A stretch of 64,000 nt of DNA from a virus (IMGVR_UViG_3300045988_183660), one strand, 5' to 3'; numbered from the stretch's first letter, positions 6,151 to 53,233 are shown. Program-made: numbers and translations. Notes: generated by a model not told the origin, from the sequence alone.

Positions 6151-6275
6151 AGAAGTAAAGGAATTTGAACCTCTCATGGCTAAAGCCACGAGATTCTTGG
6201 GAACTCCTTTCTATTGAAAAGATATTTACCAAGCTAACCCGATAGTTCCTACCGTTTTTATTTATTCATTTATGC
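6150..6275 (-). ncRNA. putative TnpB omega/right-end RNA scaffold (IS right end)
   Basis: Structured non-coding region immediately 3-prime of tnpB. Known biology of IS605 TnpB. Not folded here. Confidence 0.3.
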
Positions 6276-13390: not shown

Positions 13391-13804
13391 ATGACAATAA
13401 GAGAATTAAGAAAATTAACAGGCATGTCACAGAGCCAGTTTGCAAAGAAATATGATATACCACTTAATACATTGCAGCATTGGGAAGGTGGCTATTCAGA
13501 ACCAGCAAGATACTTAGTAAAATTAATAGAAAGTACAATATGCAAAGATAGAAAAGTAATACAGGGAAATAATACTAAAGAAGGAACAATGTATTATTAT
13601 GATGAGCTTAATAAGCTTGTATATGATAATAAGGGCAATTGTTTAAGTCTTGAGATAGACCTTGATGCTACAAGTGAACATAATTTAGGTTTATATCTGG
13701 ATTTTATGTTTGAAGATTATTATAAAGCAAAAAAAAGTTTTGAAGCCCATCTTGATGCAGATAAAAAATCGGATGAAGATATTATATGGGAAAGATTATG
13801 GTAA
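13391..13804 (+). CDS. hipB: XRE-family HTH protein, HipB-like antitoxin
   Basis: N-terminal LRKLTGMSQSQFAKKYDIPLNTLQHWEGG HTH. Lies immediately upstream of hipA. Confidence 0.55.
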   Translation: MTIRELRKLTGMSQSQFAKKYDIPLNTLQHWEGGYSEPARYLVKLIESTICKDRKVIQGNNTKEGTMYYYDELNKLVYDNKGNCLSLEIDLDATSEHNLGLYLDFMFEDYYKAKKSFEAHLDADKKSDEDIIWERLW

Positions 13805-13817
13805 AGGATGTGATTAT

Positions 13818-15032
13818 ATGAGTAATGGAACATATTATTTAATGCATAAAGATATTCCAGTTGCTATTATGCAGCTTGAAGAAGATGATATTAATGCCAA
13901 GCCTTATAAAGTAACAATTAATGCTAAAAACATAGAACATCTTCCAATAGGTGCGAGAATGAATAACATGAAATTTATTGAGTGGTGGCAGGATAGAACT
14001 ATACCCAAAACGAGGCAGGGGGCTAAGAGTGCGTTAGAAAGGCTTGAATATAAGTCTGTTACCAATGCTATGATAGATAACCTTGCCTTAAGTCTTAATG
14101 ACTGTTATTGGATAAAACCATTGGATTCAGACCTTACATGGAAGGATGTTAATTTATTTTCCAATAAGTTTGAAGACAGATTTGGCGAATTAACTTTTAA
14201 TAAAGATTCCGGCTTGGATTTAAGAAATAAGACTAAATTTAAGTTTGCTGTATCTCAGGGAGAAGTACAGAAAAAATGGTGTATAGACAGTGAAAACAGA
14301 CGTTATATGGTAAAAGGCAATTATGGTACATCATATCAGCAGAGTATTAATGAAGTATTTGCGACTAAATTACACGAAGCTCAGGGCTTTGTGAATTTTA
14401 CACCATATTATTTCACTAAAATTGAACTGGAAAATAATATGACTGGACTTGGCTGTTTTTCTTATAATTTTTGCAATGAAAATATTGAAAGCATTTCGGC
14501 ATGGGAATTATTGCAGACTGTTAAAATAAAGCAGAATATGTCATTATATTATCCGTTTAAGCAGATATGCCTTGAGATGGGAATGAAAGAAGAAGACTTT
14601 GACTATTTCATGGATTATGAGATAATGACTGATTTTCTACTTACTAATACTGACAGACATATGAATAATATAAGTATATTAAGAAATCCTGATACACTTG
14701 AGTTCTTAGGCTTTGCTCCTATCTATGACAGTGGTAATTCAATGTTCTATTCAGTTCCTACTAATAAACTTAACAGTGTACATCTTGGTCAGGATAAGGT
14801 ACATTCATTTATTACATCACAGGAAAACAGACTATTATCATATGTAAAAGATAGAAATGTAGTAGACTTATCAAAATTTGATGATATATCTTTTTCGATA
14901 TATGAGAAAGATACTGAACCGAACAGAAGCATAATGCTTGAAGAAATGTTTTATAAGAAAGCTGAAGCTTTAAGAAGCTTTCAAAAAGGCAAAAACATAT
15001 GGAAACCTAAAACTGTACAGATTGAACATTAA
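13818..15032 (+). CDS. hipA: HipA-like Ser/Thr kinase toxin
   Basis: LLTNTDRHMNNISIL (HipA catalytic D.H..N) and APIYDSG motifs. Start at ATG 13818 with an RBS, 13 nt after the hipB stop. Confidence 0.65.
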   Translation: MSNGTYYLMHKDIPVAIMQLEEDDINAKPYKVTINAKNIEHLPIGARMNNMKFIEWWQDRTIPKTRQGAKSALERLEYKSVTNAMIDNLALSLNDCYWIKPLDSDLTWKDVNLFSNKFEDRFGELTFNKDSGLDLRNKTKFKFAVSQGEVQKKWCIDSENRRYMVKGNYGTSYQQSINEVFATKLHEAQGFVNFTPYYFTKIELENNMTGLGCFSYNFCNENIESISAWELLQTVKIKQNMSLYYPFKQICLEMGMKEEDFDYFMDYEIMTDFLLTNTDRHMNNISILRNPDTLEFLGFAPIYDSGNSMFYSVPTNKLNSVHLGQDKVHSFITSQENRLLSYVKDRNVVDLSKFDDISFSIYEKDTEPNRSIMLEEMFYKKAEALRSFQKGKNIWKPKTVQIEH

Positions 15033-25348: not shown

Positions 25349-25382
25349 AGGCTGTCTGATTATTTCAGGCAGTCTTTTTTTG
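25349..25382 (+). terminator. rho-independent terminator CTGTCTGA-loop-TCAGGCAG + T-run (module copy 1)
   Basis: Stem with one wobble pair. Module repeated at 26650 and 34066. Confidence 0.6.
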
Positions 25383-26649: not shown

Positions 26650-26690
26650 GCTGTCTGATTAATTTCAGACAGTCTTTTTTATTTTTATAC
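26650..26690 (+). terminator. rho-independent terminator CTGTCTGATTAATTTCAGACAG + T-run (module copy 2)
   Basis: Perfect 8-bp stem. Confidence 0.7.
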
Positions 26691-26932
26691 CTTGTATACA
26701 GTATACATAAATAATTCAGCACTTATAACTCCAAATTCATAACTAAAAGCAGTCCGGCAGCCAATACCCAACCGGCATCTGAAAAACGAAAGTTTTTCCC
26801 TAAAGGCAGATATATTGATAAAAATATAAAATGTATGATTCAATTATTGTAAAAAGGCTTAATTACATAAACTGCGATAACTATTTACTATAAAATACTA
26901 TAAAATAATATAAAGGAGATTTTTTTTAGAAA

Positions 26933-29685: not shown

Positions 29686-29839
29686 TACTTTATAATAATA
29701 AACATTAATTAAGGGGTTATGACAATGATATTTAACATATCAGCATAGCCTCTTATTTTTATGTGATTTAATAAAAAACATTGTGATAAAAAAGTAACAT
29801 ATTTATATAAAATAATGAAAAAGGATATAATATATAAAT

Positions 29840-32800
29840 ATGACAAGAGATGAAGCTTTTAAAGAAATTAATAGCATACAAAATGATTATATTGATGAAT
29901 TAATAGGATTAATAAATAATCCAGATTATATTATTAATAAAACTATTAATTTTACATCTGCAACTGGTACAGGTAAAACTAAAATGATGAGTAAGTTAAT
30001 AAATAAACTACCAGACTATTTTTTCATTATAACAACATTATCTAAAGGGCAATTACATCTTCAAGTAAAAAATAGCTTAGAAAAAGATTGCGTCAATAAT
30101 AATTTTATTGTATATGGAAATGCTGATTATAAAATAAATAGTATTTTAAGAGCAGATGATATAATAAGAGTATTACCCAAAGATAAGCCTTGTATATGGC
30201 TTAGAGATGAAGGACATATCAGAACGAATAATTTTGAAGAATTATTAATGAATATATGTTATAAAGTAATAAATTTTTCAGCTACAAATACACATAGTGA
30301 TATAAAGTGTAAATTTTCACAAACTATGATGCTTAGAACGGTAAATCAAACAACTGGAACACCTGAAGAAGCTATAAATAAGTTATTAGAAGTAAAAAGG
30401 ATTCATAAAAATATACCTAAATATAATCCCTGTGCAATTTTTAGATGTGTAGGCGGTAATGGATATTTGTATAAATGGATTGTGCAACTTTGTGAAAAAA
30501 ACAATTTAAAATATATAGATATAACAAAAGATGAATATTTAATGTCAGAACTTTGTGAAGATGATAATGAATATGATGTTATAATAAATAAATTTAAAAT
30601 TACAGAAGGTATAGATATCCGGAGAGCGCATGTTTTGTATATGGATAATCAGCCATCTAATGCAGCAACAACTATACAGGCAATTGGAAGATGTCGCCGT
30701 AATGCACTTCTTTACAGAGATGATATTGATATATTTGCACCTGAGAATAAGGATTTATTAGAACAAACAAGAGAATGTTATGTATTTTATAATGTTTGTG
30801 AAATGAAAATAGATACCGATTCAGATGGTGAATTACAATTAGCCTTTTGTAATCATATAACCTGCGAAGAATTAAAAGCAGGAACAACTATAGAAGTTAT
30901 CAATGGACAGCTCCCTAATGGTTTATATGTTATTGAATTGGTAGGAAAAACGGGTAAATATAAAATAGTTAAAGATTCCACAACCGGTTTTAATGTAATT
31001 AAACCATTATCAAATTTTTATGATACCCAAATTAAACATTTTGATAATAATTATTTATACTATGATTCATATGCAAAATTACATATTAGTAATATTAATC
31101 AGTTTCCATTATTAACTACAAAAAAAGAGTTTGATTTTAGCATAGGTGAATATAGAGAGATGCAGGTAGAACCTTACTATGAAATATCAAAGGAAATTAT
31201 AAAGAATAATGTAGAATATAAATTTTCTCAGGATATATTAGATTTTTATAAAAATCAAGCAAAAAAATATATATTCGGTGAATACATTTATAATTTAATT
31301 AAAGAATATTCAGTAGAATTTTATATAAACAAAGATAATTTATATTCATATAAAGAAATTAATATAAATGTTGAAAAATATATATTAGACAATCAAAACA
31401 AAAACGGGCTTAAAATTTTTTGCCAATTTCTCAATGATTTCGAAAATAATATTGTTAATATATCCGGCTTTGAGTATAAGTTAAATGATGTATGTTCAAA
31501 AGATGAATTAATTTTATTGAAAGAAGCATGTATAAAGCAGAAAAATATGCGAAGAACTAATGATGATATAAAATTTTTTATAGATGAATATATAAAAATA
31601 AAGTCAGAATATAAACGCTATAAGCTTATTAGATATTATAAAAACCATGAATTTCTTAAAATATTTGACAATTTAAGTGCTGAAATTTTACCTAAAGATA
31701 ATTTGTGTGATTATATAAGAGAATTTGTTAAATCTTATATGAGTAGAATTGAATCAGATAATAACCTTCAAAACTTTTATATATTAATTCGGCAATTATA
31801 CACCGCACGAAATATAACAATTGATATTGTAAGCGAATTAGAAAAGTGCTGTGATATTTTTGAATTAGAAATGATAGCGTATTGCTGCATAAAAGAAAAA
31901 GAACTTGGATTGAAAGATGAGGAAATAATATTATATCTTGAAAAAATATTAAAAGAACGCCATAATTTTTATTTGAGTGAAAATACCAAAGAATATAATA
32001 ATATTACATATTTAATATTAAATGAAAATTTGTCAGGATTTTATTCACAAATTAATATCGAACCATTTTCAGTTAAAGTAGAATATACAGATGATATACA
32101 GGTACAAAAAAATGATATATCAAGATACTTTGAAAAAATAGATAATAAATTGAAATTATCAAATGATAAAAAAATGCATCTATATTTGTGTACAGAAGAT
32201 ATAAAACTTTGCACTAAAAAAGCGATTGCTTTTAATTATAAAAAAATGCTTGATGATACAATAGAAGAAGTTATTTATTCATATTCAACACTTTTTGAAG
32301 ATGTATCTTCAGATGAACATTATATGATTCGCAATAGATATATACCGGAAACTGGAAGATATGTTGAACAAAAGGATATTGAAAATTATAAATCATATGA
32401 GCCATATGATAAAATAGTAAATGATAAAGAGAGTGCAATTATAGGCGTTGATTTAATGAAACAAATAAAAGTGAATAATGAGCCAGTATGGAGCGAAGCA
32501 AAATCAGTAAGTCAAAAAGTAGGTAATTATAATAAATTAAATGTTTTTATAACGAATAAATATTCAGATGAATTAAAACAGGCATCTTCTCAATATATAA
32601 GAGGGAAAAATCATTTTGAACTTGATACGAAGTGTAATTCAATAATAGGTTATTGCGTTGAATATTATTCAAAATATTTAGTTTACGGAGATAAATATTT
32701 GCATGATTATATAATAAAAGCTCAAAGAGAATCTAATACTAACGTGTGTAACGAATATATTATAGTAAGAGCCTGCATGTTAAAACATAGAGAAATGATG

Positions 32801-33208
32801 ATTAGAAGTTTTGGAAAAGGAGTTGCCAAAGTAATAAAAAGTATTACAATTAAAGAACTTGTAAAAGAAAAGTATAAATATTTCGTCAAATTAGTGGTAG
32901 AATTAGCTGAGAAAACCGCAAGTTATGTAAAAAGAAGTTTATATGCAAATAGGATTCCTAAAGATAATATTGATACAGATTTATCTATAGAACATATAAA
33001 GGGATTAGCAGATTATATTACAGAAGATACGATTTTAGATGTTAAGGTTAGAAATAATATTGATGAAAAATGTATAAGACAAGTTCTTGCATATCATTAT
33101 TTATCTACAAAAAGGTCAGACTTGAATATAAAAAAAGTGATAGTATATGATGCTGTAAGTGATAAAGCTGTTGTGGTAAATATAAGTTCTGATAATATCA
33201 AAAAATAA
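29840..33208 (+). CDS. 1122-aa protein with a compact N-terminal SF2 helicase/ATPase core and a roughly 800-aa uncharacterised C-terminal region
   Basis: SATGTGKT (motif I), DEGH (II), FSATNT (III), QAIGRCRR (VI). Extremely AT-rich and K/N/I/Y-rich. Confidence 0.6.
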   Translation: MTRDEAFKEINSIQNDYIDELIGLINNPDYIINKTINFTSATGTGKTKMMSKLINKLPDYFFIITTLSKGQLHLQVKNSLEKDCVNNNFIVYGNADYKINSILRADDIIRVLPKDKPCIWLRDEGHIRTNNFEELLMNICYKVINFSATNTHSDIKCKFSQTMMLRTVNQTTGTPEEAINKLLEVKRIHKNIPKYNPCAIFRCVGGNGYLYKWIVQLCEKNNLKYIDITKDEYLMSELCEDDNEYDVIINKFKITEGIDIRRAHVLYMDNQPSNAATTIQAIGRCRRNALLYRDDIDIFAPENKDLLEQTRECYVFYNVCEMKIDTDSDGELQLAFCNHITCEELKAGTTIEVINGQLPNGLYVIELVGKTGKYKIVKDSTTGFNVIKPLSNFYDTQIKHFDNNYLYYDSYAKLHISNINQFPLLTTKKEFDFSIGEYREMQVEPYYEISKEIIKNNVEYKFSQDILDFYKNQAKKYIFGEYIYNLIKEYSVEFYINKDNLYSYKEININVEKYILDNQNKNGLKIFCQFLNDFENNIVNISGFEYKLNDVCSKDELILLKEACIKQKNMRRTNDDIKFFIDEYIKIKSEYKRYKLIRYYKNHEFLKIFDNLSAEILPKDNLCDYIREFVKSYMSRIESDNNLQNFYILIRQLYTARNITIDIVSELEKCCDIFELEMIAYCCIKEKELGLKDEEIILYLEKILKERHNFYLSENTKEYNNITYLILNENLSGFYSQINIEPFSVKVEYTDDIQVQKNDISRYFEKIDNKLKLSNDKKMHLYLCTEDIKLCTKKAIAFNYKKMLDDTIEEVIYSYSTLFEDVSSDEHYMIRNRYIPETGRYVEQKDIENYKSYEPYDKIVNDKESAIIGVDLMKQIKVNNEPVWSEAKSVSQKVGNYNKLNVFITNKYSDELKQASSQYIRGKNHFELDTKCNSIIGYCVEYYSKYLVYGDKYLHDYIIKAQRESNTNVCNEYIIVRACMLKHREMMIRSFGKGVAKVIKSITIKELVKEKYKYFVKLVVELAEKTASYVKRSLYANRIPKDNIDTDLSIEHIKGLADYITEDTILDVKVRNNIDEKCIRQVLAYHYLSTKRSDLNIKKVIVYDAVSDKAVVVNISSDNIKK

Positions 33209-33358
33209 TTAATAATAATACAATTTTGCTAGTGGTTTTTCTTGGCATTTCAACTATAATTTTAAATGTTTTAAGAATAATATTTTTCTAAAATGGAGGA
33301 AGGTAAATATATGGAAATATTAATAATCGGATTCTTTTCATTATTTTTCTTAATTAGT

Positions 33359-33396
33359 TTACACGGGTTTACAAAAGCATATAATTGTGTATAATA
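33359..33396 (+). promoter_or_regulatory. promoter of the toxIN module (TTTACA-N17-TGTGTATAAT)
   Basis: Extended -10 consensus TATAAT. Confidence 0.5.
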
Positions 33397-33404
33397 TAAG
33401 TAAG

Positions 33405-33496
33405 AAATCAAATGGATTTCAATAAGAATGTTACGAAGCATGTAAAAAAATCGTTTTAATAGATGTTACGAAGCATGTAAAAAATCGTTTTAATAG
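33405..33496 (+). ncRNA. toxI: ToxI-like type III antitoxin RNA: about 2.5 tandem repeats of 35-36 nt (AATGTTACGAAGCATGTAAAAAAATCGTTTTAATAG)
   Basis: Two near-perfect tandem repeats plus a partial one, placed between the promoter and a terminator directly upstream of a ToxN homolog. Confidence 0.6.
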
Positions 33497-33520
33497 GAGC
33501 TGTAAAATGCAGCTCCTTTT
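33497..33520 (+). terminator. rho-independent terminator separating toxI from toxN (GGAGCTG-TAAAA-TGCAGCTCC + T-run)
   Basis: Perfect stem. Arrangement typical of type III TA loci. Confidence 0.7.
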
Positions 33521-33538
33521 ATATTAGGGAGATATAAG

Positions 33539-34057
33539 ATGAAATAGATTCATGCAGATGAAAAATATTTGGATTATTTAAGAACAATTGAAAGAAGAAT
33601 ACCTAGAACAGACTATGGTTCTGACAAATATAAGCCTTTTTTTGGGGTTTTATTTGAGACAAATGATTTGTATTATATTACACAAGTTTCACATCCGCAG
33701 AAAAGACATGAAAAAATGAATGAGCAAAGGGATTTTTATAAATTATTCAATCCACGAAATCCAAAGGAATTAATAGCTGTAGTGAATCTTAATTATATGT
33801 TCCCTATACCTAAGAACTGTACATATAATTTTCAAAAAAATAATATGGAGTTATATAGAACTTTTAAATCAGATGAAGAAAAAAGCAGATATATAGATTT
33901 ATTAAACAAAGAACTAGAAGCTATAAATAAACTAAATTTAGATGAAAAAGCAAAATATATATATAATTTAAAATATAATAAACCGGATAATAATATTTCA
34001 AAAAGATGTATTGATTTTAAAGATTTAGAAAAATATGCAAAATTATATAAAAAATAA
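33539..34057 (+). CDS. toxN: ToxN/AbiQ-family type III toxin endoribonuclease; ATG-AAA-TAG: in-frame amber stop at codon 3
   Basis: AGGGAG RBS 7 nt upstream of ATG 33539. Downstream frame reads IHADEKYLDYLRTIERRIP...KPFFGVLFE...LIAVVNLNYMFPIP, which aligns with ToxN MKFYTISSKYIEYLK...KAFIGIVLE...LGLINLKFMIPI. The track ORF starts at TTG 33569. Confidence 0.65.
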
Positions 34058-34065
34058 GAATAAGA

Positions 34066-34100
34066 AATGCAACGACTGTCTGATTAATTTCAGGCAGTCT
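34066..34100 (+). terminator. rho-independent terminator CTGTCTGATTAATTTCAGGCAG + T-run (module copy 3)
   Basis: Same module as 25349 and 26650. Followed by a related 25-nt palindromic tail. Confidence 0.65.
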
Positions 34101-34585
34101 TTTTTATTACCATCACACCATGTATACAATATACAAGATAACAAAAAGTTAAAAATGGCGTCTTTTTAAAATAGTCGCCAAAATACAATTTCACAAACCC
34201 GCATAAACACTGGGATAGAAGCACGGTGGTCACAATGTTTCTACTTCGTAGAACCATGCTACTATGGGTGAGCAAGAGTTTGATTTGACCCCTCATATAT
34301 TAATGAATACGATTTTATTCTATATTTAAACATCATAATTAACTATTCGGATGTCCAATGTCTACAAGCAGCCATAAACCTTTCCATCTCCCAAAGCCTT
34401 ATTTTAATAAAAAATTTTATTCACTCTCATAATAAAGCCTTATTGTGAAAGTTTAATTTAATGAATTTAGTAACATAACTATATATGGAGAGTTGTTTAT
34501 TTTTTATTACTGTCCATAAAAATTAATCACTTTCCTGTACAGGCTTATATAAGCCTAGTAATGAGAGAAAGGAGAGCAAAATCTT

Positions 34586-37500
34586 ATGAAGAAAGGTTTA
34601 ATGAGTATGAGAAACAGATTTAAACGATTTTTTACTATGGTACTTGCTATTGTTACATTTTTTACTTCTATACCATTAAGTAATCTTACCTTTACCAAGG
34701 CTGATTCGGCAGTTGCTAATAATGGTGAAGAAGATGACTATTATATCAATGTAACTATTGACCTTGATGGCGGTACTGCTGATGATATCTATTATGAATC
34801 TCAGGTTGACAGAGATGGGGCTGGATACAGTGCAGGTCAGTGGGTAAGTAAATTTGGTGCTGGCAAAACATTTCTTGATAAGCATGGTAAAAAGCATACT
34901 GTAGCAGGCAGGGGAGCAGATGACCCATGTGAAGGCTCGTTTGTAGTCCGTGCTGATGCAATTGGTGTTACACCTCATGTTGTTATAGCAACTCCTACAA
35001 AAGAAGGTTATACATTTGCAGGATGGGATACTAATGCAAGTGTTAATAAATATGGCAGTGATGATGCATTTGATGTAGGATGCTGGAATCCGGGAAGCAT
35101 AACAATTACAGCTTTATGGAAAAGAGATACAGCCAACATGACAGTGTACTATGATTCAGGTGTAAAATATGTTGGTTCAGATGGCTATAGTGATGATTAT
35201 GATTTCACTTATAGCGGTCAAGACCATAATTTTCCATTAAATTCAACTTTACAGACTAATGTACATTTAAAAGATGGATTTAATATGGTAGGTTTTCAGG
35301 AAGATGCTGTTGCAGATGGTTTTGTCTGGAATGGCTGGAAGACTAATCCGGATTATCCTAATGTATATTTTGATTCATGGACAATGGATACGAACAGAAG
35401 TATAAAGGTAATTACTAATACCACATTAAGTTTTGAATATGATGAAGGCTTTGAAAATACTGCACATACTGAAACAGTACAGACAGATGATAAGTACTAT
35501 GATTATCCAAAGCTTAAGCAGAGTTATGAACTTGATTATGTAGAAGATTTGGATACCGAAGAAAAGTGGTATACATATGATGGCAGAAATAATAATGGTT
35601 CATATATATACTGGACAGCAAACCGTCCTAGAAGGGTAAAGTATCATTCAAAGCTAAAGGAAAGTGCAAAGAATACACTTAACTTAGACCAGAATGGTGC
35701 AACCACAAAGGGAACAGAAAGAGTAGACGTATATCAGGGTGTAAAGATAGATGATATCACAATACCTAAGAAAGAATATACAGCTACATTTTTTGACGGT
35801 AATAAGAAAGTACATGATGATATCATCAATAAGTTTAAATTCCTTGGATACTGGAATGATACTAAATATGTATGGGAAAAAGATACAACCGGATATGCTG
35901 ATTTCTTTGAAACTGGACTGCCAAACGATTCAGATACAGTAGATACTATTAATGGTAACTATGGAGATGCATATTATTTTGATTTATATAGTGAAATAAC
36001 CGGTACTGCCAGTACAGCTAATTTTACGGGGCGTTTAAATACATATAATAAGAATCTTAATACATGGATGAATTTTTCAATACGAAATACACCTAGTCAG
36101 AAAATAAGGGTATCCATGCATGTAAATGGTGTTGGTATAATTGAAACAGAAGATGGTACAAAATGCCGTCAGTATTCATTTGAATTATCAAGTAATGAAG
36201 AAGTTAATGTCTTTGTTGGTGGAAATGTAGAGATATATTTCTATAAAGAAACTTCTGGAAATGCAGAATTTTATATGGAGTTTCCACAGAAAAAAGAATT
36301 AACAACAGGCTACTGGTATGATGAAAATGGTAAAGGATTAATTGAATATCCATTATCAAGAAATCATACTATAACAGCTAAATGGAGTGGAGATAATATA
36401 ACTTTACCAGAAGCACCTGAAAAAGAAGGCTATACATTTGTCGGATGGCGTACTGAAGATGCTAAATTGATGACTTCTGAATGGGGTAATGATGATTCTG
36501 ATTATCTTGACTGTAAGAATAATTATGGTGGAGATGTAGCTAAATGGTTTAAAGCCAGTAGGGAAGGTAAAACTAACTATGATGTTAAACACATGTATTT
36601 AGTGCCAAATTCATATTATCTTAATGATGAAGTAATGCATTTTCAGTGGTATTACGTTTATTATGCCGGAGATGAAGTAGGACTTAGTAAAAACACAAAA
36701 TTTATCGCATGTTATGATGAGATTCCAAAGGTAACTGTTAAATTTGAATCAGGCAGTGATAATACATCTGAATATAATCAGAAGTATGATTTAACAGTAT
36801 ATGAAGGACAGTCATTAAAAATACCTGAAGAATCAGCAAGCTATTATAAAGGACGAAAATATGTAGTAAGCTTTGATAATAAAGGCATAGGCACAACACC
36901 TGACAGTATAAGTGGTAATGCACCATTTGATTACTGGAATGTAAGAAGTGGTATAGATGAAGATGCAGATGAATTTTTTGCAGGAGAGACAATACCAAAA
37001 GTAAATAAAAATGGTATCTTAAGTGCAATATATAAAGATGTTGAAATCAGCAATTTACCAATATTAAGTGCAGATGGCTATATATTTGAAGGCTGGTATG
37101 AAGATGCAGACTATACAATAAAAGCAGATAAAGTAAGTATAGACGGATATGGATATAACGCATTGGATGAGCCAGAGCTAATCACATTGTATGCGAAGTG
37201 GAAGAAAACAAGTGCCACATTGCGTACAGTAGGTGAAGAAGGAATAGCAGAAACGAACTATTCAGAAAGTACACAGATAGAAAAAGGCAGTATAGTACGA
37301 ATAGAAGCAAAGCTTAGTAAAGGATATGTATTTAAAGGCTGGTATAATGGAGATGTAATTATCAGTAATGATTTAAGTTTTGATTATACTATGCCGGATG
37401 AAGATACAGTTCTTACAGCTAAAGCAGAACCAAAATGGTATGTACTTACCTTTGACCCTAATGGTGGTATTTTAAAGAATCCGGGAGATAATTTATATCC

Positions 37501-40500
37501 ATTAGATAAAAGCAGAACTAATTATGTATATACTCAGTGGAATAAGAGCTTCTATGCTTATATGACCGGTGATATACCAACAAGAACAGGTTATAGATTT
37601 GCAGGCTGGTATTTAGGAAATGAAGCAGTATTTAGTAAAACCGGATATGCTTTATATAATACAAGTTTGTTTAGTTATGATACTGATTATCATTGGAGAT
37701 ATGACGGTAATGTAACTGTAAAGGCTGATTGGGAACATATTAAATATACTGTAAAATATGCAACAACATATGGTACAGGAAGTATACCTGATGAAGTATA
37801 TAATTATAGAGATGAATTTATATTAAAAGATGGAAATGCCTTTAAAAAGGATGGATATGAATTTGACCACTATTTTGTAAGACGTGAATCAGATAATAAA
37901 GTATATTGTGTAGATGGTGTATGGCATAGTACAGATGAAAGTGACAGTTATGGAAATAACAGTGCTAACTGGTATGACAGATATTATACCGGTAAGAAAT
38001 TCACAATGGATGCAGCATGGGTAAGAACAGATACAACAGAAGATGAAACATTTACATTCTGGGCTTTTCCAAAACCATGTAAATATACAGTTACATATTA
38101 TGCTAATGGTGGTAATCATTCAGATGGACAGACAAAATGGACAGATACAGCCACATATGATACAAAGTATGATACATGGCGTAATGGCTTGGTACGAAAC
38201 GGATATGAATTTATCGGTTGGAATACAAAAGCAAATGGAACTGGAACATGGTGGGCTACTAAGAATGAAAAAGGTACAAACTGGACACAGAAAACAGATG
38301 GTTTATGGTATTTTACAGGAATCTGGAATACAGATAATGGATGTCCTTTATCAGATATAGACCTGTATGCAGTATGGAAACCGGTTGAATACAGTATCAC
38401 TTATAACTTAGATGGTGGTATAGTAACTGTAAAGAATCCTATAAGTTATACAATAGAAACGAATACATTTACATTAAATAATCCTGTTAAAGCTGGATAT
38501 TCATTCGTTGGATGGACTGGCAGTAACGGAACAACACCACAGAAAACAGTAACAATATTAAAGGGAAGCATGGGTAATAAGACATATACCGCTAACTGGG
38601 TAAAAGATAAAACAATTAAGTTTAAATCGGTTGGACATGCAGGTGAAGAATATAATTCAAAACTGGATGTATCAGTTGCAGCAGGTAAGTCTTATAAAAT
38701 ACCTGAAGAATCAGTTAATTATTATAAAGGTAGAGGATATACTGTTAAATTTAATAACAATGGTATAGGTACAAAACCTGAAGATATAACCGGTAATGCT
38801 CCATTTGATTACTGGAATGTTGAAAGTGGTATAGATGAAGATGCAGATGGATTTTATGCAGGTGAAACAATACTAAAAGTAAACCGTGATGGTATATTAA
38901 GAGCTGAATTTAATGATATTAAATTTAGTGATGATGATTTACCAAAACTTACAGCAACAGGCTATATATTCAGAGGATGGTATACTGATGAAGGTTTAAA
39001 TCATAAAGCAAGTGACGGATATCTTATAGATGGTAACGGATATAATGTTTTAGATAAACCTGAAGAAGTAACACTTTATGCAAAATGGGAAGCTTCTGCA
39101 AACCAGTATACAGTAGAACATTATCTTATGAACTTTGATGGTAAATATGATGATGTAGCATCATATATAGATACATATGCAGCTAAAACAGCTGAAAGTG
39201 TAACACCACCAGTAAGAACATTTGAAGGTTTTACAAGCCCTGAAACACAGACTGTAACCGTAAAACCGGATGGCAGCACTGTAATAAAATATTACTATAC
39301 AAGAAATAAATATATATTGGATTTAAACTCTTGGATAGATAATACAAAATATAGTGATTTGCTTTATTACACAGAAGATGAAAATGGCAACAGAAATCAG
39401 TTTATAGCAGCGAAAGCTACTGTAAAGATAAATGGTGTTGAATATGCCAAGGATGTAACAGATTATGAAAGCAGGTATGTATTTTATGGCAGTGAAATTG
39501 AAATGATTATCACACCTGAAACAGGACACACCATAGTAAAAGATGAGACAGTAGATTATACATACAATGTATATGAAAATGTCGCAACTATTAAACTTAC
39601 AATGCCAGCTTCAGATAAGGAAGTTGCACCTGTATTGTTTACAGACAGTGTAAAGTATGTTGTAAATCATTATCTTATGAATCTTGATGGAAAGACATAT
39701 ACATTAACTGATACATATACAGGTAAGGCAAAAGCAAACCATTATGTAACACCGGCAGTAAATTCATATGAAGGCTTTACAAGTCCAAATACACAGAATG
39801 TAAGAATCAAAGCAGATGGAAGTACAGTAATAAATTATTATTATACAAGAAATCAGTATTATCTTAACTTAAATGGATATTTACAGTATAAAGATAGAAG
39901 TGAAGATTTTACAGAACTGGTAGAGACAGTAAAGAATCTTAATAATGAAGATGTACGGAATGAATTTGCTACAGCTATAGTTAAGGTTAATGGTGAAATA
40001 CATGAAAACGGAAATAATGTAACAGACTTTTATGAGAAAGTGTTATTTGGAAGTACTTATGAAGTAATTACAACTGCAAAGACTGGTTATACAGTTATAG
40101 ATAACACAGAAACACTTACAGGTGTAGTTGAAGCCATTGATACTGAAACAGGTAATGAAGTAAAACCACATGTTAAAGTAAACAGCTATACAATTAAATT
40201 TGAGCCTAATAAGCCAAGTAAAGCAACAGAAGATATAAGCAGTGTATTAACACAGGATGTATATTATAATCGTGAATATAATCTTAAAAAGAATGAATAT
40301 TCATATATAGGTTATGAATTTATCGGATGGAATACAAAGGCTGATGGAACTGGAACAGCTTATAAGGATGAAGCTGTTATAAAGAATTTAACAGATAAAG
40401 ATAATGATACTGTAACATTATATGCACAGTGGAAGATACATAAATGGAACATAAATGTATACGTCAAGAATGAAAAACCTGATGGAACATTTGAAAATGA

Positions 40501-43500
40501 GACATTATGGAAATCTGAAGAACTGGAATATAATACAGAGTATAATTATACAATCTATAAAAATGATAAGGCTTATGAAGATTTAAGCACAAATGGTACA
40601 ATGCCTGATAATAATGTTGATTTACATTTAACAGCATTAAGAAAACAGTATACTGTAACAGTAAACGGAGATAGTCATATCACAAATACAACAGGAAGCG
40701 GCAGATACAGATATGAATATGAACCTACAATAAGTGCCGAAGTAGAAGTTGGTTATCATTTCCTTAACTGGAATAATAACAGTTCTTTAAATAAAGAAGA
40801 AATGCAGATAAAGGTATTAGGAGATATCACATATACAGCTTATACAGCACCAAATACTGATACAAAATATACTGTAAAGCATTATCAGATGAATTTAGAC
40901 GGAACAACTTATACACTTGCTGATACAGAAAACTTTACAGGAGTAACAGATAAAGAAGTTACACCTAAAGTTAAAAAGTATGAAGGCTTCACAAGTCCTG
41001 AAGCACAGACAGTTACAATCAAGGGTGATGGCAGTACAGTTGTTGAGTATTATTATACAAGAAACAAACGTCATTTTAACATTAGGGGATATATCAATAA
41101 TGTATACAGAGATGAACTTGTTGATATAGTAACTAATCCTGTAACAGGAGAAGACGAAACTCATATAGCCGGTACAATGGTAGTAACCATTAACGGTGAA
41201 GTAAAAGCAAGAGATGTATTAAGCTTTGAACAGGATGTATATTATGGAAGCAAGATTAATATTGTTACAACGACAAAGGATGGCTATATAACACATAATG
41301 AAAATTTAGATATTATTATGCCAAAAAGTAACCATACACAAGTTATAATAATTGAATCAGACACCATAACATATACTGTAAGACACTGGAAAAAGAATGT
41401 TAATACAGATACTAACGTCTATGATGAAAATGTATTAGATGAAAAGAATTATTCTTTAGCTGATACAGAAGTTATATCTGGAAAAGCATACAGTTGGGTA
41501 ACACCAGTTATAAAGACATATGAAGGATTTACATATAAGGCTACACTTCCAAGTGAAGGAACAGCTTATATAAAGCCTGATGGAAGTACAGTAATTGATG
41601 TATATTACAGTAGAAATAAATATGTAATTGACCATACTGATGATTATTTAACAGATGTAGAATATGGTAATGGTATCAAAGATGTAAGTGGATTAAATAC
41701 TTATGAATATGAGCAGGAAGTCATGCTTACAGCTAATTTAAAAACCGGTTATCACTGGCATGATACAGATGACTGTATAAGCAGCATTAAGTATCCTACA
41801 GGCTGGTATAGTAGGGATAATTCAGGTGTTGAAGGAATCTTAAAAGATAACACAACATATGAATCACAGAGTATTAAATTTAATATGCCTGCAAGAGATG
41901 TAAAACTTGGTGTAAAAGCTACAAATAATTCTTATACAGTAGTATATAATGAAAATAGACCTACTGACCCTAGTTCACTTTATAATGTACAGGTTATAGA
42001 TGAAATTAAGCAGGAGTTTATTTATAATGAAAGTCAGAATATAGCTACAAATAAGTTTAATTTAGCAGGATATACAAGAAAGTTAGGCTGGATGACAAAA
42101 CCAAGTACAGATGGTAATGGAACAGCTGATTATGCTTATGGAGAGACAGTAATAAATCTTACTGATAAGAACTTGGATGTAATTAATCTTTATGCAATAT
42201 GGGAAGATAATGCACCTGAAATGCTTGATATAAGTAGTACAAATAATTTTGCAGACACACAGACAGTAACACTTTATGCAAGAGACTTAGGAAGTGGTGT
42301 AGCATATATAAGCTTCACAAAAGACACTGAAAAAGAATCTTATGAAAAGGTTACATGTAGTAATAATGGTGTAGTAACAGTTACAAAGACTATAAATGAT
42401 AATGGTACTTATGTATTAAGTGCTAAAGATAAAAATGGAAAAGTAAGTAAAACTACAATTACATTTTATAAGACAACATGGGATACAAATAAGAACCATA
42501 TCATAGCAGCGGATGGATTAAGTGTAGTAGAAGCTGATTTCACATCAGTTCCAACTGCTTTAAGTACCAAAACAAGTATAAATACAGCCGGAAGTATATT
42601 AAGACCTGTGACAAGCAGGGATGGTGTAGATTTCCTTGGCTGGAATACATCAGACACAGCATTAGCAGGAAATATGAGTATAACAGTAAACTCAGATGGA
42701 GCTTATTATGCAGTATGGATAGATAATGATGTACCTGTAGCAGTACTTGATAATATAACATCAGATATATCAGCAACCCAGACAATAACATTCAGTCTGT
42801 ATGATACAGCTGAAAAAAGAATTGATACTGGTTCAGATATAAAGGGATATTATATAGGTACAAATCCAAAAGCAAGATTAAATGAGTTTAAATCTGTAAC
42901 ATCAGGCAAAGACGGAAGCTTTAGTGGAAAAGAAACAGTTACACTTGATAAGGAGACAACATATTATATATTCCCGGTTGATAAAGCCGGTAATATAGGT
43001 GATACAATCAAATTAAATGGTGGAAATGGTTTATTATTCCATAGAGTAGACTTTGATGCGAATGGAACAGATGAAAGTCCGGCAACAGTAAATGTACCAT
43101 ATGCAGTAATACCACATGGAAGTACAATAACATTGCCAACAGCTTATAGATTAGGCTACCATGATGCGTCTGGAAATGAAGAACAGACAGAAGAAAATGA
43201 TGGAAAGACAGGTTACTGGGGAAACAGTAAAACTGCATCCGTTGGCTTTAATATACTTAAGGTTGATAAAGACTATACAGTATATGCATTATGGAAAGCA
43301 AATAAATATGCAATTATACTTTCAAGCAATAAGCCAATGATTAATAACGGATATAGAGCAAATTCTTTCTATAAACCAACTGGTGATAAAAAGATTATAG
43401 TAACATATGATGAAGAAATACCTTTTGAAAATGTAAATAATCCAAGTTTAACAGGATGGACATTTAAAGGATATGCAAATACCATATTAAGTACAGCTGA

Positions 43501-44101
43501 TAATAATGAAAGTAAAGAGCTTATAGATATAAGTGGACAGAAATTTAATCTTCAGTTTGTTAAAGACTGGTATGAAGCTAATAATAAAGAATTTAGTAAT
43601 ATAACAGATATAACACTTTATGCAGCATGGAGTGAAAATAAATATACAGTTAATTATGATACAGTAGGTGGTACAGCACTTAAAAACAGTAGAGTAACAC
43701 ACTGGTATGAAGAAAGTTTCACTCTTCCAAAAGCAACAGGTGATTATTATGATGGATATAAGCCTCTTGATACAGCAGGTAAAGCCATAACAACATACAG
43801 ACCCGGACATATCTTTATGAACTGGATATGTGATGGAACAGTATATGTAAATGGTGGAACAGCTGAAAGACTTATAGCTGATAATAATGGTGAATGTACT
43901 ATTAAGGCAGTCTGGAAAACTAAAAAAACAGTTACACTTAATATTACTTCCGATACTTTCAGAGAAAGTATGACTAATGATTATGCTGCTTTAATTGATA
44001 AAGTATGGGCTTCTAAAGGTACTGATTTCTTAAATAATGAACAGGAAACTATTAAAGAATATACCTTTACTAAATCAAGTGATATCGTTTCTACTAAATA
44101 A
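34586..44101 (+). CDS. 3171-aa secreted cell-surface repeat protein / adhesin (Listeria-Bacteroides Flg_new-type repeats + MucBP-like modules)
   Basis: Signal peptide. About 14 GY(T/I/E)F.GW...LYA.W repeats and 4 copies of V.HY.MN.DG..Y.L.DT..G....TP.V..YEGFTSP..Q.V.I..DGSTV..YYYTRNK. Internal 150-aa duplication (aa about 715-870 vs 1340-1500). No LPXTG motif. Confidence 0.8.
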   Translation: MKKGLMSMRNRFKRFFTMVLAIVTFFTSIPLSNLTFTKADSAVANNGEEDDYYINVTIDLDGGTADDIYYESQVDRDGAGYSAGQWVSKFGAGKTFLDKHGKKHTVAGRGADDPCEGSFVVRADAIGVTPHVVIATPTKEGYTFAGWDTNASVNKYGSDDAFDVGCWNPGSITITALWKRDTANMTVYYDSGVKYVGSDGYSDDYDFTYSGQDHNFPLNSTLQTNVHLKDGFNMVGFQEDAVADGFVWNGWKTNPDYPNVYFDSWTMDTNRSIKVITNTTLSFEYDEGFENTAHTETVQTDDKYYDYPKLKQSYELDYVEDLDTEEKWYTYDGRNNNGSYIYWTANRPRRVKYHSKLKESAKNTLNLDQNGATTKGTERVDVYQGVKIDDITIPKKEYTATFFDGNKKVHDDIINKFKFLGYWNDTKYVWEKDTTGYADFFETGLPNDSDTVDTINGNYGDAYYFDLYSEITGTASTANFTGRLNTYNKNLNTWMNFSIRNTPSQKIRVSMHVNGVGIIETEDGTKCRQYSFELSSNEEVNVFVGGNVEIYFYKETSGNAEFYMEFPQKKELTTGYWYDENGKGLIEYPLSRNHTITAKWSGDNITLPEAPEKEGYTFVGWRTEDAKLMTSEWGNDDSDYLDCKNNYGGDVAKWFKASREGKTNYDVKHMYLVPNSYYLNDEVMHFQWYYVYYAGDEVGLSKNTKFIACYDEIPKVTVKFESGSDNTSEYNQKYDLTVYEGQSLKIPEESASYYKGRKYVVSFDNKGIGTTPDSISGNAPFDYWNVRSGIDEDADEFFAGETIPKVNKNGILSAIYKDVEISNLPILSADGYIFEGWYEDADYTIKADKVSIDGYGYNALDEPELITLYAKWKKTSATLRTVGEEGIAETNYSESTQIEKGSIVRIEAKLSKGYVFKGWYNGDVIISNDLSFDYTMPDEDTVLTAKAEPKWYVLTFDPNGGILKNPGDNLYPLDKSRTNYVYTQWNKSFYAYMTGDIPTRTGYRFAGWYLGNEAVFSKTGYALYNTSLFSYDTDYHWRYDGNVTVKADWEHIKYTVKYATTYGTGSIPDEVYNYRDEFILKDGNAFKKDGYEFDHYFVRRESDNKVYCVDGVWHSTDESDSYGNNSANWYDRYYTGKKFTMDAAWVRTDTTEDETFTFWAFPKPCKYTVTYYANGGNHSDGQTKWTDTATYDTKYDTWRNGLVRNGYEFIGWNTKANGTGTWWATKNEKGTNWTQKTDGLWYFTGIWNTDNGCPLSDIDLYAVWKPVEYSITYNLDGGIVTVKNPISYTIETNTFTLNNPVKAGYSFVGWTGSNGTTPQKTVTILKGSMGNKTYTANWVKDKTIKFKSVGHAGEEYNSKLDVSVAAGKSYKIPEESVNYYKGRGYTVKFNNNGIGTKPEDITGNAPFDYWNVESGIDEDADGFYAGETILKVNRDGILRAEFNDIKFSDDDLPKLTATGYIFRGWYTDEGLNHKASDGYLIDGNGYNVLDKPEEVTLYAKWEASANQYTVEHYLMNFDGKYDDVASYIDTYAAKTAESVTPPVRTFEGFTSPETQTVTVKPDGSTVIKYYYTRNKYILDLNSWIDNTKYSDLLYYTEDENGNRNQFIAAKATVKINGVEYAKDVTDYESRYVFYGSEIEMIITPETGHTIVKDETVDYTYNVYENVATIKLTMPASDKEVAPVLFTDSVKYVVNHYLMNLDGKTYTLTDTYTGKAKANHYVTPAVNSYEGFTSPNTQNVRIKADGSTVINYYYTRNQYYLNLNGYLQYKDRSEDFTELVETVKNLNNEDVRNEFATAIVKVNGEIHENGNNVTDFYEKVLFGSTYEVITTAKTGYTVIDNTETLTGVVEAIDTETGNEVKPHVKVNSYTIKFEPNKPSKATEDISSVLTQDVYYNREYNLKKNEYSYIGYEFIGWNTKADGTGTAYKDEAVIKNLTDKDNDTVTLYAQWKIHKWNINVYVKNEKPDGTFENETLWKSEELEYNTEYNYTIYKNDKAYEDLSTNGTMPDNNVDLHLTALRKQYTVTVNGDSHITNTTGSGRYRYEYEPTISAEVEVGYHFLNWNNNSSLNKEEMQIKVLGDITYTAYTAPNTDTKYTVKHYQMNLDGTTYTLADTENFTGVTDKEVTPKVKKYEGFTSPEAQTVTIKGDGSTVVEYYYTRNKRHFNIRGYINNVYRDELVDIVTNPVTGEDETHIAGTMVVTINGEVKARDVLSFEQDVYYGSKINIVTTTKDGYITHNENLDIIMPKSNHTQVIIIESDTITYTVRHWKKNVNTDTNVYDENVLDEKNYSLADTEVISGKAYSWVTPVIKTYEGFTYKATLPSEGTAYIKPDGSTVIDVYYSRNKYVIDHTDDYLTDVEYGNGIKDVSGLNTYEYEQEVMLTANLKTGYHWHDTDDCISSIKYPTGWYSRDNSGVEGILKDNTTYESQSIKFNMPARDVKLGVKATNNSYTVVYNENRPTDPSSLYNVQVIDEIKQEFIYNESQNIATNKFNLAGYTRKLGWMTKPSTDGNGTADYAYGETVINLTDKNLDVINLYAIWEDNAPEMLDISSTNNFADTQTVTLYARDLGSGVAYISFTKDTEKESYEKVTCSNNGVVTVTKTINDNGTYVLSAKDKNGKVSKTTITFYKTTWDTNKNHIIAADGLSVVEADFTSVPTALSTKTSINTAGSILRPVTSRDGVDFLGWNTSDTALAGNMSITVNSDGAYYAVWIDNDVPVAVLDNITSDISATQTITFSLYDTAEKRIDTGSDIKGYYIGTNPKARLNEFKSVTSGKDGSFSGKETVTLDKETTYYIFPVDKAGNIGDTIKLNGGNGLLFHRVDFDANGTDESPATVNVPYAVIPHGSTITLPTAYRLGYHDASGNEEQTEENDGKTGYWGNSKTASVGFNILKVDKDYTVYALWKANKYAIILSSNKPMINNGYRANSFYKPTGDKKIIVTYDEEIPFENVNNPSLTGWTFKGYANTILSTADNNESKELIDISGQKFNLQFVKDWYEANNKEFSNITDITLYAAWSENKYTVNYDTVGGTALKNSRVTHWYEESFTLPKATGDYYDGYKPLDTAGKAITTYRPGHIFMNWICDGTVYVNGGTAERLIADNNGECTIKAVWKTKKTVTLNITSDTFRESMTNDYAALIDKVWASKGTDFLNNEQETIKEYTFTKSSDIVSTK

Positions 44102-51308: not shown

Positions 51309-53159
51309 ATGTCAGATAAAACAGTAGAAACAATAAAGAAAATAATGATAGATAATAACCTGTCAAGACAGGAATTTGCGAATAAAATAGGAGCAGCTGC
51401 GGGAACTGTAAAAAAATGGGAAAAAGGAAGAACACCATCCTTTGATAATATAAAAAGGATAGAAAATGTGTTCGGTATCAATGTAATGACCGGACATATA
51501 GTAAAACCGGTTAAAAAAGTAATTGATATGAGAAAATACACAGCGGATATAAAAACTGCATATAGCAGTAAACCATCCGTAGTGCAAAAACCAACCGGCA
51601 GCGACAAACCTGATTGCTCTCCTAAGCCTTCTTTTGTAGAACAGAAGAAAACAGATGCGGATACACTTAATATAGAGCAGTTTAAGATTTTTAATGAACT
51701 TGTAGCAGGAGAAAATATATTCCTTACTGGTAATGCAGGTACAGGTAAAAGTTATCTTGTAAATGCTTTTAGTGATTATTGTGATGATAACGGAATAAAC
51801 CTTGTTAAAACAGCTCCTACAGGTGTAGCTGCTTACGAAATAGGTGGTTCAACACTTCATTCTCAGTTTAAATTAGGACTTGGCATCTTAATTGAGAAAC
51901 CTAAGTGGAAGAGTATATATAACTTTTTACTTAATACTGACGTACTTCTTATTGATGAAATAAGTATGGTACGTCTGGATACATTTGATTATCTTGCACA
52001 GATACTTATACTTGCTAATAATAAAAGAAATGAAGAAAATAAAAAGAATATACAGCTTGTTTTTGTAGGAGACTTTTATCAGTTAGCACCGGTTATAAAT
52101 AAAAAAGCTGATGAAGATGTAATATTTGCTGACCATTATGGATGCAATATAGGTGACGGATATGCATTTCAGAGTAAATACTGGAAACTGTTTAAAGTTA
52201 AATTAAGATGTTTAACACAGATTATGAGACAGGATGATAAGGATTTCTGTAATGCTCTTGATAAGTGTAAAACAGGTGATAATACATGTTTACAGTATTT
52301 TATGACACATACATCAGCAAATGAAAATGAAGGTATATGGGTATGTGGAAAGAATGATACAGCACGAAAGAAAAATGAAGAAGGACTTGAAAAGATTAAT
52401 AATGAACTCTTAGTATCTGAAGCTGAATACAGTGGAGATGTATCAAAGGCAGATGGTCTTGCAGAAGATAAGTTTGTATACAAGGTTGGTGCAAGAGTAG
52501 TAATAACATGTAATGATAGTGCAGGAGAGTATAATAATGGCTCACTTGGTATTATTACAGATGTTAATGGTTTAAGTGGTGGATTATTTACCAGTATTAT
52601 TACAGTTAAACTGGATAACGGACATACAGTAATGATTGATAAAAAAGAATCTGATAAATATAAGTATGAAGTTATAGAAGAAGATAAAGAAGTTGAAGTG
52701 ATTAATGAAGATGGTACAGTCACCAAAAAAACTGTTAAGGAAAAGAAGCTTAAAAAGAAAAAGACTGGAAGTGTAACACAGTTTCCATTAAAGCTTGGAT
52801 ATGCAGTAACCATACATAAGTCACAGGGGCAGACGTATGATGCTATGAATTTAAAGCCTGAGATATTTGCAAATGGACAATTATATGTAGCTTTAAGCAG
52901 ATGTAAAAGTGCAGCCGGTATATATATAGAAGGGTATTTAAGTAAACGTATGGTAATGGCATCATCTGAAGTAATAACATATTATAATAATCCTGAAAAT
53001 TATAGCTTCTTTGATAAGGGTGAAGAAAAAATTGAAATTATTATACCACTTAAATATAAAGAAAAAATCGAACAGCTTATAAAGGAATGGGATAAAACCG
53101 ATAAAAATATTCCTGATAAAAATATCCAGACTATTAAACAACAATGGAATTTTGCGTGA
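51309..53159 (+). CDS. XRE-HTH::PIF1/RecD-family helicase fusion
   Basis: N-terminal LSRQEFANKIGAAAGTVKKWEKG HTH, then an S/P/K linker. Helicase motifs TGNAGTGKS, LLIDEISMV, VFVGDFYQLAPV, KSQGQTYD, ALSRCKS. Confidence 0.7.
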   Translation: MSDKTVETIKKIMIDNNLSRQEFANKIGAAAGTVKKWEKGRTPSFDNIKRIENVFGINVMTGHIVKPVKKVIDMRKYTADIKTAYSSKPSVVQKPTGSDKPDCSPKPSFVEQKKTDADTLNIEQFKIFNELVAGENIFLTGNAGTGKSYLVNAFSDYCDDNGINLVKTAPTGVAAYEIGGSTLHSQFKLGLGILIEKPKWKSIYNFLLNTDVLLIDEISMVRLDTFDYLAQILILANNKRNEENKKNIQLVFVGDFYQLAPVINKKADEDVIFADHYGCNIGDGYAFQSKYWKLFKVKLRCLTQIMRQDDKDFCNALDKCKTGDNTCLQYFMTHTSANENEGIWVCGKNDTARKKNEEGLEKINNELLVSEAEYSGDVSKADGLAEDKFVYKVGARVVITCNDSAGEYNNGSLGIITDVNGLSGGLFTSIITVKLDNGHTVMIDKKESDKYKYEVIEEDKEVEVINEDGTVTKKTVKEKKLKKKKTGSVTQFPLKLGYAVTIHKSQGQTYDAMNLKPEIFANGQLYVALSRCKSAAGIYIEGYLSKRMVMASSEVITYYNNPENYSFFDKGEEKIEIIIPLKYKEKIEQLIKEWDKTDKNIPDKNIQTIKQQWNFA

Positions 53160-53233
53160 ATCAGACTTAATTTTGCTTCACCTTTGAAACAATAGATATA
53201 TATGTTATAATGTATAAAAGGACGGTAATAATT

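Follow-up and report, generated by a model that had tools for sequence, protein, structure and literature searches.

The toxIN cassette and its toxin frame

Between positions 33358 and 34105, on the plus strand of the window (the whole 64-kb stretch of DNA that was analysed), lies a compact cassette in which promoter-like sequence, tandem repeats, a terminator and a toxin gene follow one another, and in which the third codon of the toxin gene, toxN, is an amber stop. Its features are as follows, with the toxN start, its Shine-Dalgarno sequence, the linker-like motif and the 9-codon ORF being read directly from the sequence.

33358-33395, plus strand: promoter-like region, TTTACA-16 nt-TATAAT twice, overlapping and 10 nt apart (33358-85 and 33368-95)
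33404-33420, plus strand: hairpin of the toxI 5′ leader, GAAAUC-AAAUG-GAUUUC (-4.9 kcal/mol, z -3.25)
33421-33427, plus strand: linker-like motif AAUAAGA, 5′ of unit 1, a candidate 5′ processing site
33428-33462, plus strand: toxI unit 1, 35 nt, with an A7 run
33463-33496, plus strand: toxI unit 2, 34 nt, with putative pseudoknot stems S2 (AUG/CAU) and S1 (ACGA/UCGU)
33495-33522, plus strand: Rho-independent terminator between toxI and toxN, a 10-bp GC-rich stem and U tract (TTTTAT)
33526-33531, plus strand: Shine-Dalgarno sequence AGGGAG, 7 nt 5′ of the ATG
33539-33547, plus strand: start of toxN, ATG-AAA-TAG, with the amber codon at 33545-47 as codon 3
33548-34057, plus strand: rest of the toxN frame, 169 codons and TAA (34055-57), otherwise intact
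33552-33581, plus strand: out-of-frame 9-codon ORF (ATG CAG ATG ... TAA)
33569-33571, plus strand: TTG (codon 11), the first in-frame canonical restart codon, lacking a Shine-Dalgarno sequence; the start chosen by gene callers for a 162-aa product
33945-33955, plus strand: (AT)5A tract inside toxN, site of two independent frameshifts in sister strains
34074-34105, plus strand: terminator 3′ of toxN (hairpin 34074-34099, z = -7.3)

Beyond the amber codon the frame encodes a ToxN/AbiQ protein, as the initial annotation had proposed from residue-by-residue likeness, and the Pfam search that it suggested bears the homology out: the translation of 33548-34054 matches PF13958 (ToxN_toxin) with an E value of 3e-43, positions 6-159 of the 159 in the profile being covered, and the PADLOC AbiQ model at 3.8e-22. 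Profile matches among solved structures are to PDB entries 2xd0, 7d8o, 4ato and 4glk, and the structure model of a 73%-identical homologue (pLDDT 89.8) superimposes on ToxN (2xd0, 7d8o, 4ato) and AbiQ (4glk) with TM scores of 0.72-0.82. Ser51, the equivalent of the catalytic serine of AbiQ, is present and invariant, and outside codon 3 the gene differs from the intact allele by a single conservative change, Ile37Val. Close homologues carry the NCBI name ‘type III toxin-antitoxin system ToxN/AbiQ family toxin’. Phage and plasmid collections yielded no near match, just one 68%-identical toxN on a Clostridium perfringens plasmid.

Upstream, the TTTACA and TATAAT boxes first recognized are there, but not with the 17-nt spacing and TGn element then ascribed to them: the spacing is 16 nt, the pair is doubled, and TGTG directly adjoins the second -10 box, so that a canonical TGn extension is absent. 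Each of the two matches agrees with 11 of 12 consensus positions. Sites of this kind are at near-chance density in such AT-rich DNA (16 in the scan, with 12.5 expected); from 33354 onward the promoter-like region is 100% identical in relatives. The hairpin that had been taken for a terminator between repeats and toxN has a 10-bp stem (33495-33517, -15.1 kcal/mol, z = -5.1) and stands immediately 5′ of the toxin gene, and the AGGGAG and ATG-AAA-TAG described earlier are where they were said to be (33526-31 and 33539-47). The order repeat RNA, terminator, toxin of type III toxin-antitoxin systems is accordingly present, in support of a toxIN/AbiQ module. At the far end of the cassette, the region of the 3′ terminator (34065-34135) has copies, 85-97% similar, after two other genes of the window (26651-26707 and 25352-25380), and is a small repeated intergenic terminator element.

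The published description of toxIN loci gives repeats of 31-62 nt in 1.9-5.6 copies and a mean toxin length of 168 aa (PMC3401426), and the locus sits comfortably inside these ranges. The description also prefers, without strictly requiring, a single promoter 5′ of the array, where the window has the two promoter-like matches. Of the other properties by which it recognizes such loci, a homologous toxin, an adjoining terminator, a tandem array 5′ of the terminator and a unit predicted to fold as a pseudoknot are all found here, while an intact, translatable toxin ORF is missing owing to the TAG at codon 3. Since the codon is TAG here and the gene is intact in 11 sister loci, the window copy is to be regarded as a member of the family by descent and probably not as a working toxin-antitoxin pair.

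The antitoxin array

The repeats had been counted at first as 2.5 tandem copies of 35-36 nt from 33405 to 33496. They are tandem repeats, but Tandem Repeats Finder gives 2.0 copies of a 34-35-nt unit over 33428-33496, the two being exact 34-nt copies, far beyond chance, and what precedes them (33400-33427) is not a strict half repeat but the conserved 5′ hairpin plus the AAUAAGA motif. Equivalent GAAATC...GATTTC leader hairpins with different loops are found in two more distant loci, L019 and L075. The array of 35 + 34 nt is identical to that of two sister loci with intact toxN (L118 and L122), and the notion that a two-unit array is a degenerate antitoxin accompanying toxin loss was rejected for that reason. 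Other sister strains have three units, and one of them, L001, has one unit more than the window, although the number (two or three) varies among assemblies, to which short-read assembly may contribute. Upstream sequence is long enough in 119 related loci, and in 112 of these toxN is preceded by an array of 31-35-nt units in about 2-4 copies whose end is about 40-50 nt from the gene, so that the repeats are conserved in related genomes, the absence of which had been named at the outset as an argument against the module.

Covariation was assessed with 63 distinct units from 52 distinct arrays, 61 units being aligned. The pseudoknot places stem S2 at alignment columns 1-3/12-14 and S1 at columns 5-9/24-28; S2 is NGG/CCN′ or AUG/CAU, and S1 is (U)ACGA/UCGU(A), across the 61 distinct units. 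In these, 93.9% of the pseudoknot cells are paired, as against 82.9% in shuffles, and both sides have changed in 56 cells, as against 13.9 in shuffles; none of 500 shuffles reached such values, and slid controls were 17-60% paired. Compensatory types of S1, namely ACGA/UCGU, ACAG/CUGU and AUAG/CUAU, coexist within many arrays of mixed units (L019 1340-1465 and other loci). As the partners of ACAG-CUGU and of AUAG-CUAU are always in one genomic unit, each unit is taken to contain its own pseudoknot, the A-run lying in a loop of it. Each toxI repeat RNA is thus predicted to fold as a pseudoknot, on the strength of covariation rather than of structure determination.

The AAUAAGA of the leader is similar to the inter-unit UUAAUAG(A), and the leaders of other loci end in UUAG or AUUAG. 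Because the leader mimics the linker in this way and the motif also closes the array just before the terminator, the invariant UUAAUAG is a likely processing site of a large gut subfamily. The known cut sites of ToxN and AbiQ are A-rich (PMC5086642) and so differ from the linker proposed here.

A search of the ToxI unit against the type III antitoxin families of Rfam, suggested as a check, matched no family, ToxI included: with release 15 (all 4227 families) the whole window gave nothing at gathering score, and 33340-33560 searched with E values up to 10 gave just chance-level matches to unrelated families (E at least 1.4). As ToxI sequences diverge widely between loci (PMC3401426), this is not counted against the toxIN reading. 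A second copy of the toxI unit was looked for elsewhere in the window and none was found. The thought that orphan toxI arrays might act as phage decoys was dropped, as the four matches on viral contigs are on contigs that also carry toxN.

Origin and consequence of the amber codon

In a 99%-identical locus from a human-gut Clostridia MAG (L001) toxN begins ATG AAA TGG. The cassettes of the window and of L001 have three differences, the G>A at codon 3, the Ile/Val change and the extra repeat unit in L001. Ten further loci, mostly from other samples of one cohort, encode the intact 172-aa protein, all with TGG, and in the 11 together (L001 and L115-L124) toxN is about 99.6% identical, with TGG at codon 3 in 11 of 11. 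Trp3 is at least 90% conserved, and nearly invariant, in two alignments (27 homologues, 58-79% identity), and its aligned counterpart in ToxN and AbiQ proteins of solved structure is Phe3. There are 116 single-base routes to a stop codon in toxN, seven of them transitions, and since two of those seven are at codon 3, an early Trp-to-stop change is the likeliest product of ordinary mutation. By this comparison the amber codon arose from a conserved Trp codon through a plain nonsense point mutation, a TGG-to-TAG transition. Two ENA contigs have the shortened 162-aa ORF on record, and two JGI/IMG contigs have the identical sequence with a literal Leu start, though the ENA and JGI contigs with the amber codon are not necessarily independent assemblies or samples.

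Judged from the family, an intact locus of this type would have one promoter, from which a transcript with the 5′ hairpin and two pseudoknotted 34-35-nt ToxI units is made, most transcripts ending at the hairpin terminator; those that read through would carry toxN, encoding the ToxN/AbiQ endoribonuclease, which would cleave the array RNA into its units and stay inactivated by these until a phage infects. For the window copy we infer that the array is likewise transcribed and its RNA processed. There, the TGG-to-TAG change at the nearly invariant Trp3 would halt translation after Met-Lys, and consequently the locus should still make antitoxin RNA and essentially no functional toxin. The rest of the cassette is undecayed, for which reason the loss of function is called recent. 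The reading that we hold with good confidence is that of a canonical toxIN/AbiQ locus, probably chromosomal, of uncultured human-gut Clostridia in which toxN was recently pseudogenised by a nonsense mutation.

Decoding of TAG as an amino acid, by a suppressor tRNA, as pyrrolysine or by a phage-type reassignment, is largely refuted and hardly credible here. Nothing specific speaks for it, save that a related lineage gene-called in code 4 at first resembled recoding. Long plus-strand ORFs of the window end in TAA (43), TGA (7) or TAG (7). The gmk-like gene (5508-6119) was rightly cited early on as having a genuine TAG stop, for it ends in TAG after a complete Guanylate_kin match; with it TAG closes five credible long ORFs, to which read-through would add a mere 0-27 codons. 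There is no TAG inside the ORFs of 3171 and 1122 codons that flank the cassette, no tRNA gene was found within the 64-kb window, and sister strains encode the Trp by TGG. A scan of the window for in-frame stops splitting long ORFs, which would be a sign of recoding or of poor assembly, gave no other convincing case.

The code-4 case is a toxN of 67% identity (L019 1501-2049; also L111-L114), a very widespread gut allele with TGA both at Trp3 and at codon 122 and with its three-unit antitoxin array intact. Recoding of TGA as Trp, or attenuation by a leaky opal codon, was at first entertained for it (L019/P0039) because the source protein shows Trp twice, and was rejected, since codon 122 normally encodes a Leu that is nearly invariant and since the adjacent genes, with TGG in use and no TGA inside them, indicate the standard code. 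Only contigs shorter than 5 kb, gene-called in code 4, have the 182-aa ‘W’ protein (P0039) on record. By these signs the allele is a double-nonsense pseudogene misread by code-4 gene calling, and the ‘W’ protein is spurious.

The initial annotation had left it open whether the toxin is inactivated, attenuated through a restart at TTG 33569, or made by read-through. That the amber codon is kept because it lowers the output of a still functional ToxN, whether through the TTG restart (a protein without residues 1-10) or through near-cognate read-through of UAG with Gln, Tyr or Lys at position 3, is unlikely. It would fit an ORF that is fully intact past the amber codon save for a single conservative change, and a promoter, array, terminator and Shine-Dalgarno sequence that are unaltered, as a low-expressed functional allele would look alike; a ribonuclease toxin may also act at low dose. 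An allele with a 7-nt deletion (L003, P0127), occurring as two slightly different sequences, likewise swaps the N-terminus only, via a new in-frame ATG. Residual amber read-through would be very infrequent and would give a protein with a different residue 3. The TTG has no Shine-Dalgarno sequence, however, and between it and the stop codon are the out-of-frame ATGs at 33552 and 33558; the 9-codon ORF that they open runs across the TTG and would presumably compete for re-initiating ribosomes. In the homologue model residues 2-6 form beta1 and 8-17 form alpha1 (pLDDT about 92 there), and in E. coli ToxN the conserved Phe3 and Tyr10 are reported to stabilise the fold (PMC8860590). As the restart product is without beta1, Trp3 and the invariant Tyr10 (the equivalents of Phe3 and Tyr10), it would be unlikely to fold, if made at all. 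A literature search for data on N-terminally truncated ToxN brought nothing directly usable. All other strains with the cassette have TGG, and further alleles of the lineage are plain C-terminal frameshifts, which argues for general loss of function rather than tuning. Inactivation is consequently favoured over restart and read-through, on the grounds of the TGG in near-identical strains, the termination of other genes at TAG, the tRNA-free window and a restart without beta1.

That the A at 33546 might be a consensus error, or belong to a sub-population while the dominant strain has TGG, is quite unlikely. The TGG in 11 of 11 relatives and the short-read metagenome assembly from which the sequence comes would suit an error, as would a repeat count (two or three units) that differs among assemblies and is perhaps affected by them. 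Single-base consensus errors are rare outside homopolymers in Illumina assemblies, which counts against it, and the 162-aa ORF is in the two ENA and two JGI/IMG contigs (possibly not independent), as the neighbouring 1122-aa protein is also 100% identical in ENA and JGI. Genuine disrupting alleles are, besides, common in the lineage. We infer that the A is real and that toxin activity is lost, in keeping with recent pseudogenisation.

The recorded alleles of the 90%-identity cluster to which the window toxN belongs are these.

Intact 172-aa allele: 22 contigs
Amber allele (the window): 2 ENA and 2 JGI contigs
7-nt deletion in codons 7-9: 2 variants (L003, P0127), the canonical frame broken and a new ATG giving MDSCR...
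8-nt insertion: 2 (L125/L126), in the (AT)5 tract, codons 139-142
2-nt deletion: 2 (L127/L128), in the (AT)5 tract, codons 139-142

The cluster thus holds at least three independent toxin-disrupting alleles other than that of the window. The (AT)5A tract is a slippage hot spot, the toxin being cut to 146 or 141 aa. In the wider family there are an ochre codon at Gln49 (Q49>TAA, L047) and frameshifts in L053 and L075. Complete antitoxin arrays with partial toxins were noted already in 2012 (PMC3401426).

Could such loss be advantageous? It is very unlikely that a toxin-null or attenuated toxIN with a fully expressed ToxI array is a selected state in gut Clostridia and not mere decay. If it were, the benefit might be immunity to an incoming cognate ToxN (anti-addiction or anti-Abi), or low-dose toxin through read-through or restart, and the repeated N-terminal lesions and the (AT)5 slippage tract might serve as an on/off switch. 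In one lineage of gut Clostridia about one third of the recorded contigs have independent toxin knock-outs with the RNA antitoxin intact, which illustrates cleanly, from nature, how toxin-antitoxin and abortive-infection modules are expected to decay in one direction, the toxin having to be lost first. A toxIN locus with a knocked-out toxin is an ordinary, known kind of system, and current understanding is unchallenged by it. The case is chiefly of use in annotation and quality control, where the locus should be given as a type III toxIN/AbiQ with a disrupted toxin and not as a 162-aa, TTG-started ‘AbiQ’. Covariation in the heterogeneous arrays gives the pseudoknot phase and the likely UUAAUAG processing motif for an uncharacterised gut subfamily; that phase and motif, the frequent one-way loss of toxin and the code-4 mis-call are minor additions.

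Related systems and neighbouring genes

The locus is laid out like AbiQ/antiQ of the Lactococcus lactis plasmid pSRQ900, with promoter, repeats, terminator and toxin. antiQ consists of 2.8 repeats, each 35 nt long (PMC5086642), and the window has two full units of 34-35 nt plus leader. The invariant Ser51 of the window toxN is aligned with Ser51 of AbiQ, the catalytic residue, and the folds agree with TM scores of 0.73-0.78 (homologue model), whereas identity is only about 20%, the repeat sequence is unrelated and, in contrast to the plasmid system, the locus is probably chromosomal, from gut Clostridia, and has its toxin ORF broken at codon 3.

The best matches among solved structures are ToxIN of the Pectobacterium atrosepticum plasmid pECA1039 (2XD0/2XDB/2XDD) and of E. 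coli (7D8O), with a profile E value of 1.6e-10 and TM scores of 0.75-0.82 (2XD0, 7D8O). These toxins and the window toxN have in common an MK-aromatic N-terminal motif, in which Phe3/Tyr10 correspond to Trp3/Tyr10, and an antitoxin that is a pseudoknot RNA from tandem repeats, but theirs has 36-nt units in 5.5 copies, and the window 34-35-nt units in two. Where they have Thr52-Ser53-...Lys55 as the catalytic triplet, the window protein, aligned by eye, has Ser51-His52-...Gln54. As the stable pseudoknot helix encloses the A-run, the processing site of the window locus may differ from the AA/AU of the pECA1039 and E. coli systems.

Closest in setting are the catalogued toxIN loci of gut Clostridiales (Ruminococcus torques ATCC 27756, Lachnospiraceae and Roseburia; PMC3401426), which share family, host group, repeat ranges and, probably, chromosomal site with the window locus but not its nonsense allele. 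The partial-toxin type III loci of the same catalogue are like it in having full repeats and terminator with a shortened toxin ORF; they are mostly cptIN/tenpIN with remnants of 45-101 aa, and the toxicity of such partial proteins was called unclear (PMC3401426). The lesion in the window, by contrast, is a single early nonsense codon for which an intact ancestral allele is known.

Sister strains have the cassette flanked by a gene for a 334-351-aa protein and one for a Flg_new-repeat surface protein, and because a gyrA-like gene and argH are within 4 kb a chromosomal location is probable. In the window 3.6 kb of DNA (29760-33353, GC about 24.5%) stand in place of the approximately 95-nt spacer that all sister strains have between the terminator of the upstream gene and the toxIN promoter. 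Nothing was found that would tie this insertion to the amber codon. The segment encodes a 1122-aa helicase-like protein of a widespread, uncharacterised family, whose own weak matches are N-terminal and all below the Pfam gathering score (ResIII E 0.014, Helicase_C E 0.00087). Among gut Lachnospiraceae its homologues are widespread; about 1000-1100 aa long, they are conserved over the N-terminal 40% and vary at the C-terminus. The gene may be a candidate for a single-gene defence adjoining toxIN. A 33-codon ORF (33293-33394) starts in the inserted segment and ends within the toxIN promoter; it has a strong Shine-Dalgarno sequence, GGAGGAAGG, 5′ of its second ATG (33311) and a very hydrophobic peptide, MEILIIGFFSLFFLISLHGF..., and may encode a small membrane peptide or else be a chimera formed by chance.

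On the 3′ side of toxIN the Flg_new-repeat protein (34586-44101) shows large length polymorphism, with 3171 aa here and in L125, and 951 aa in sister strains (1081, 711 and 623 aa on cut contigs). Two genes for HipA_C-like kinases (13710-15032 and 53210-54493) match the PADLOC candidate system PDC-M03A at 2.1e-16 and 2.9e-23, and together with an HTH-PIF1/RecD-like helicase (51309-53159) are further defence- or TA-like genes of the window. Apart from an IS605-family OrfB/TnpB gene (6270-7373, minus strand), with OrfB_IS605 and a Cas12f1-like TNB domain, the window, otherwise plus-strand, has no sizeable block on the minus strand.
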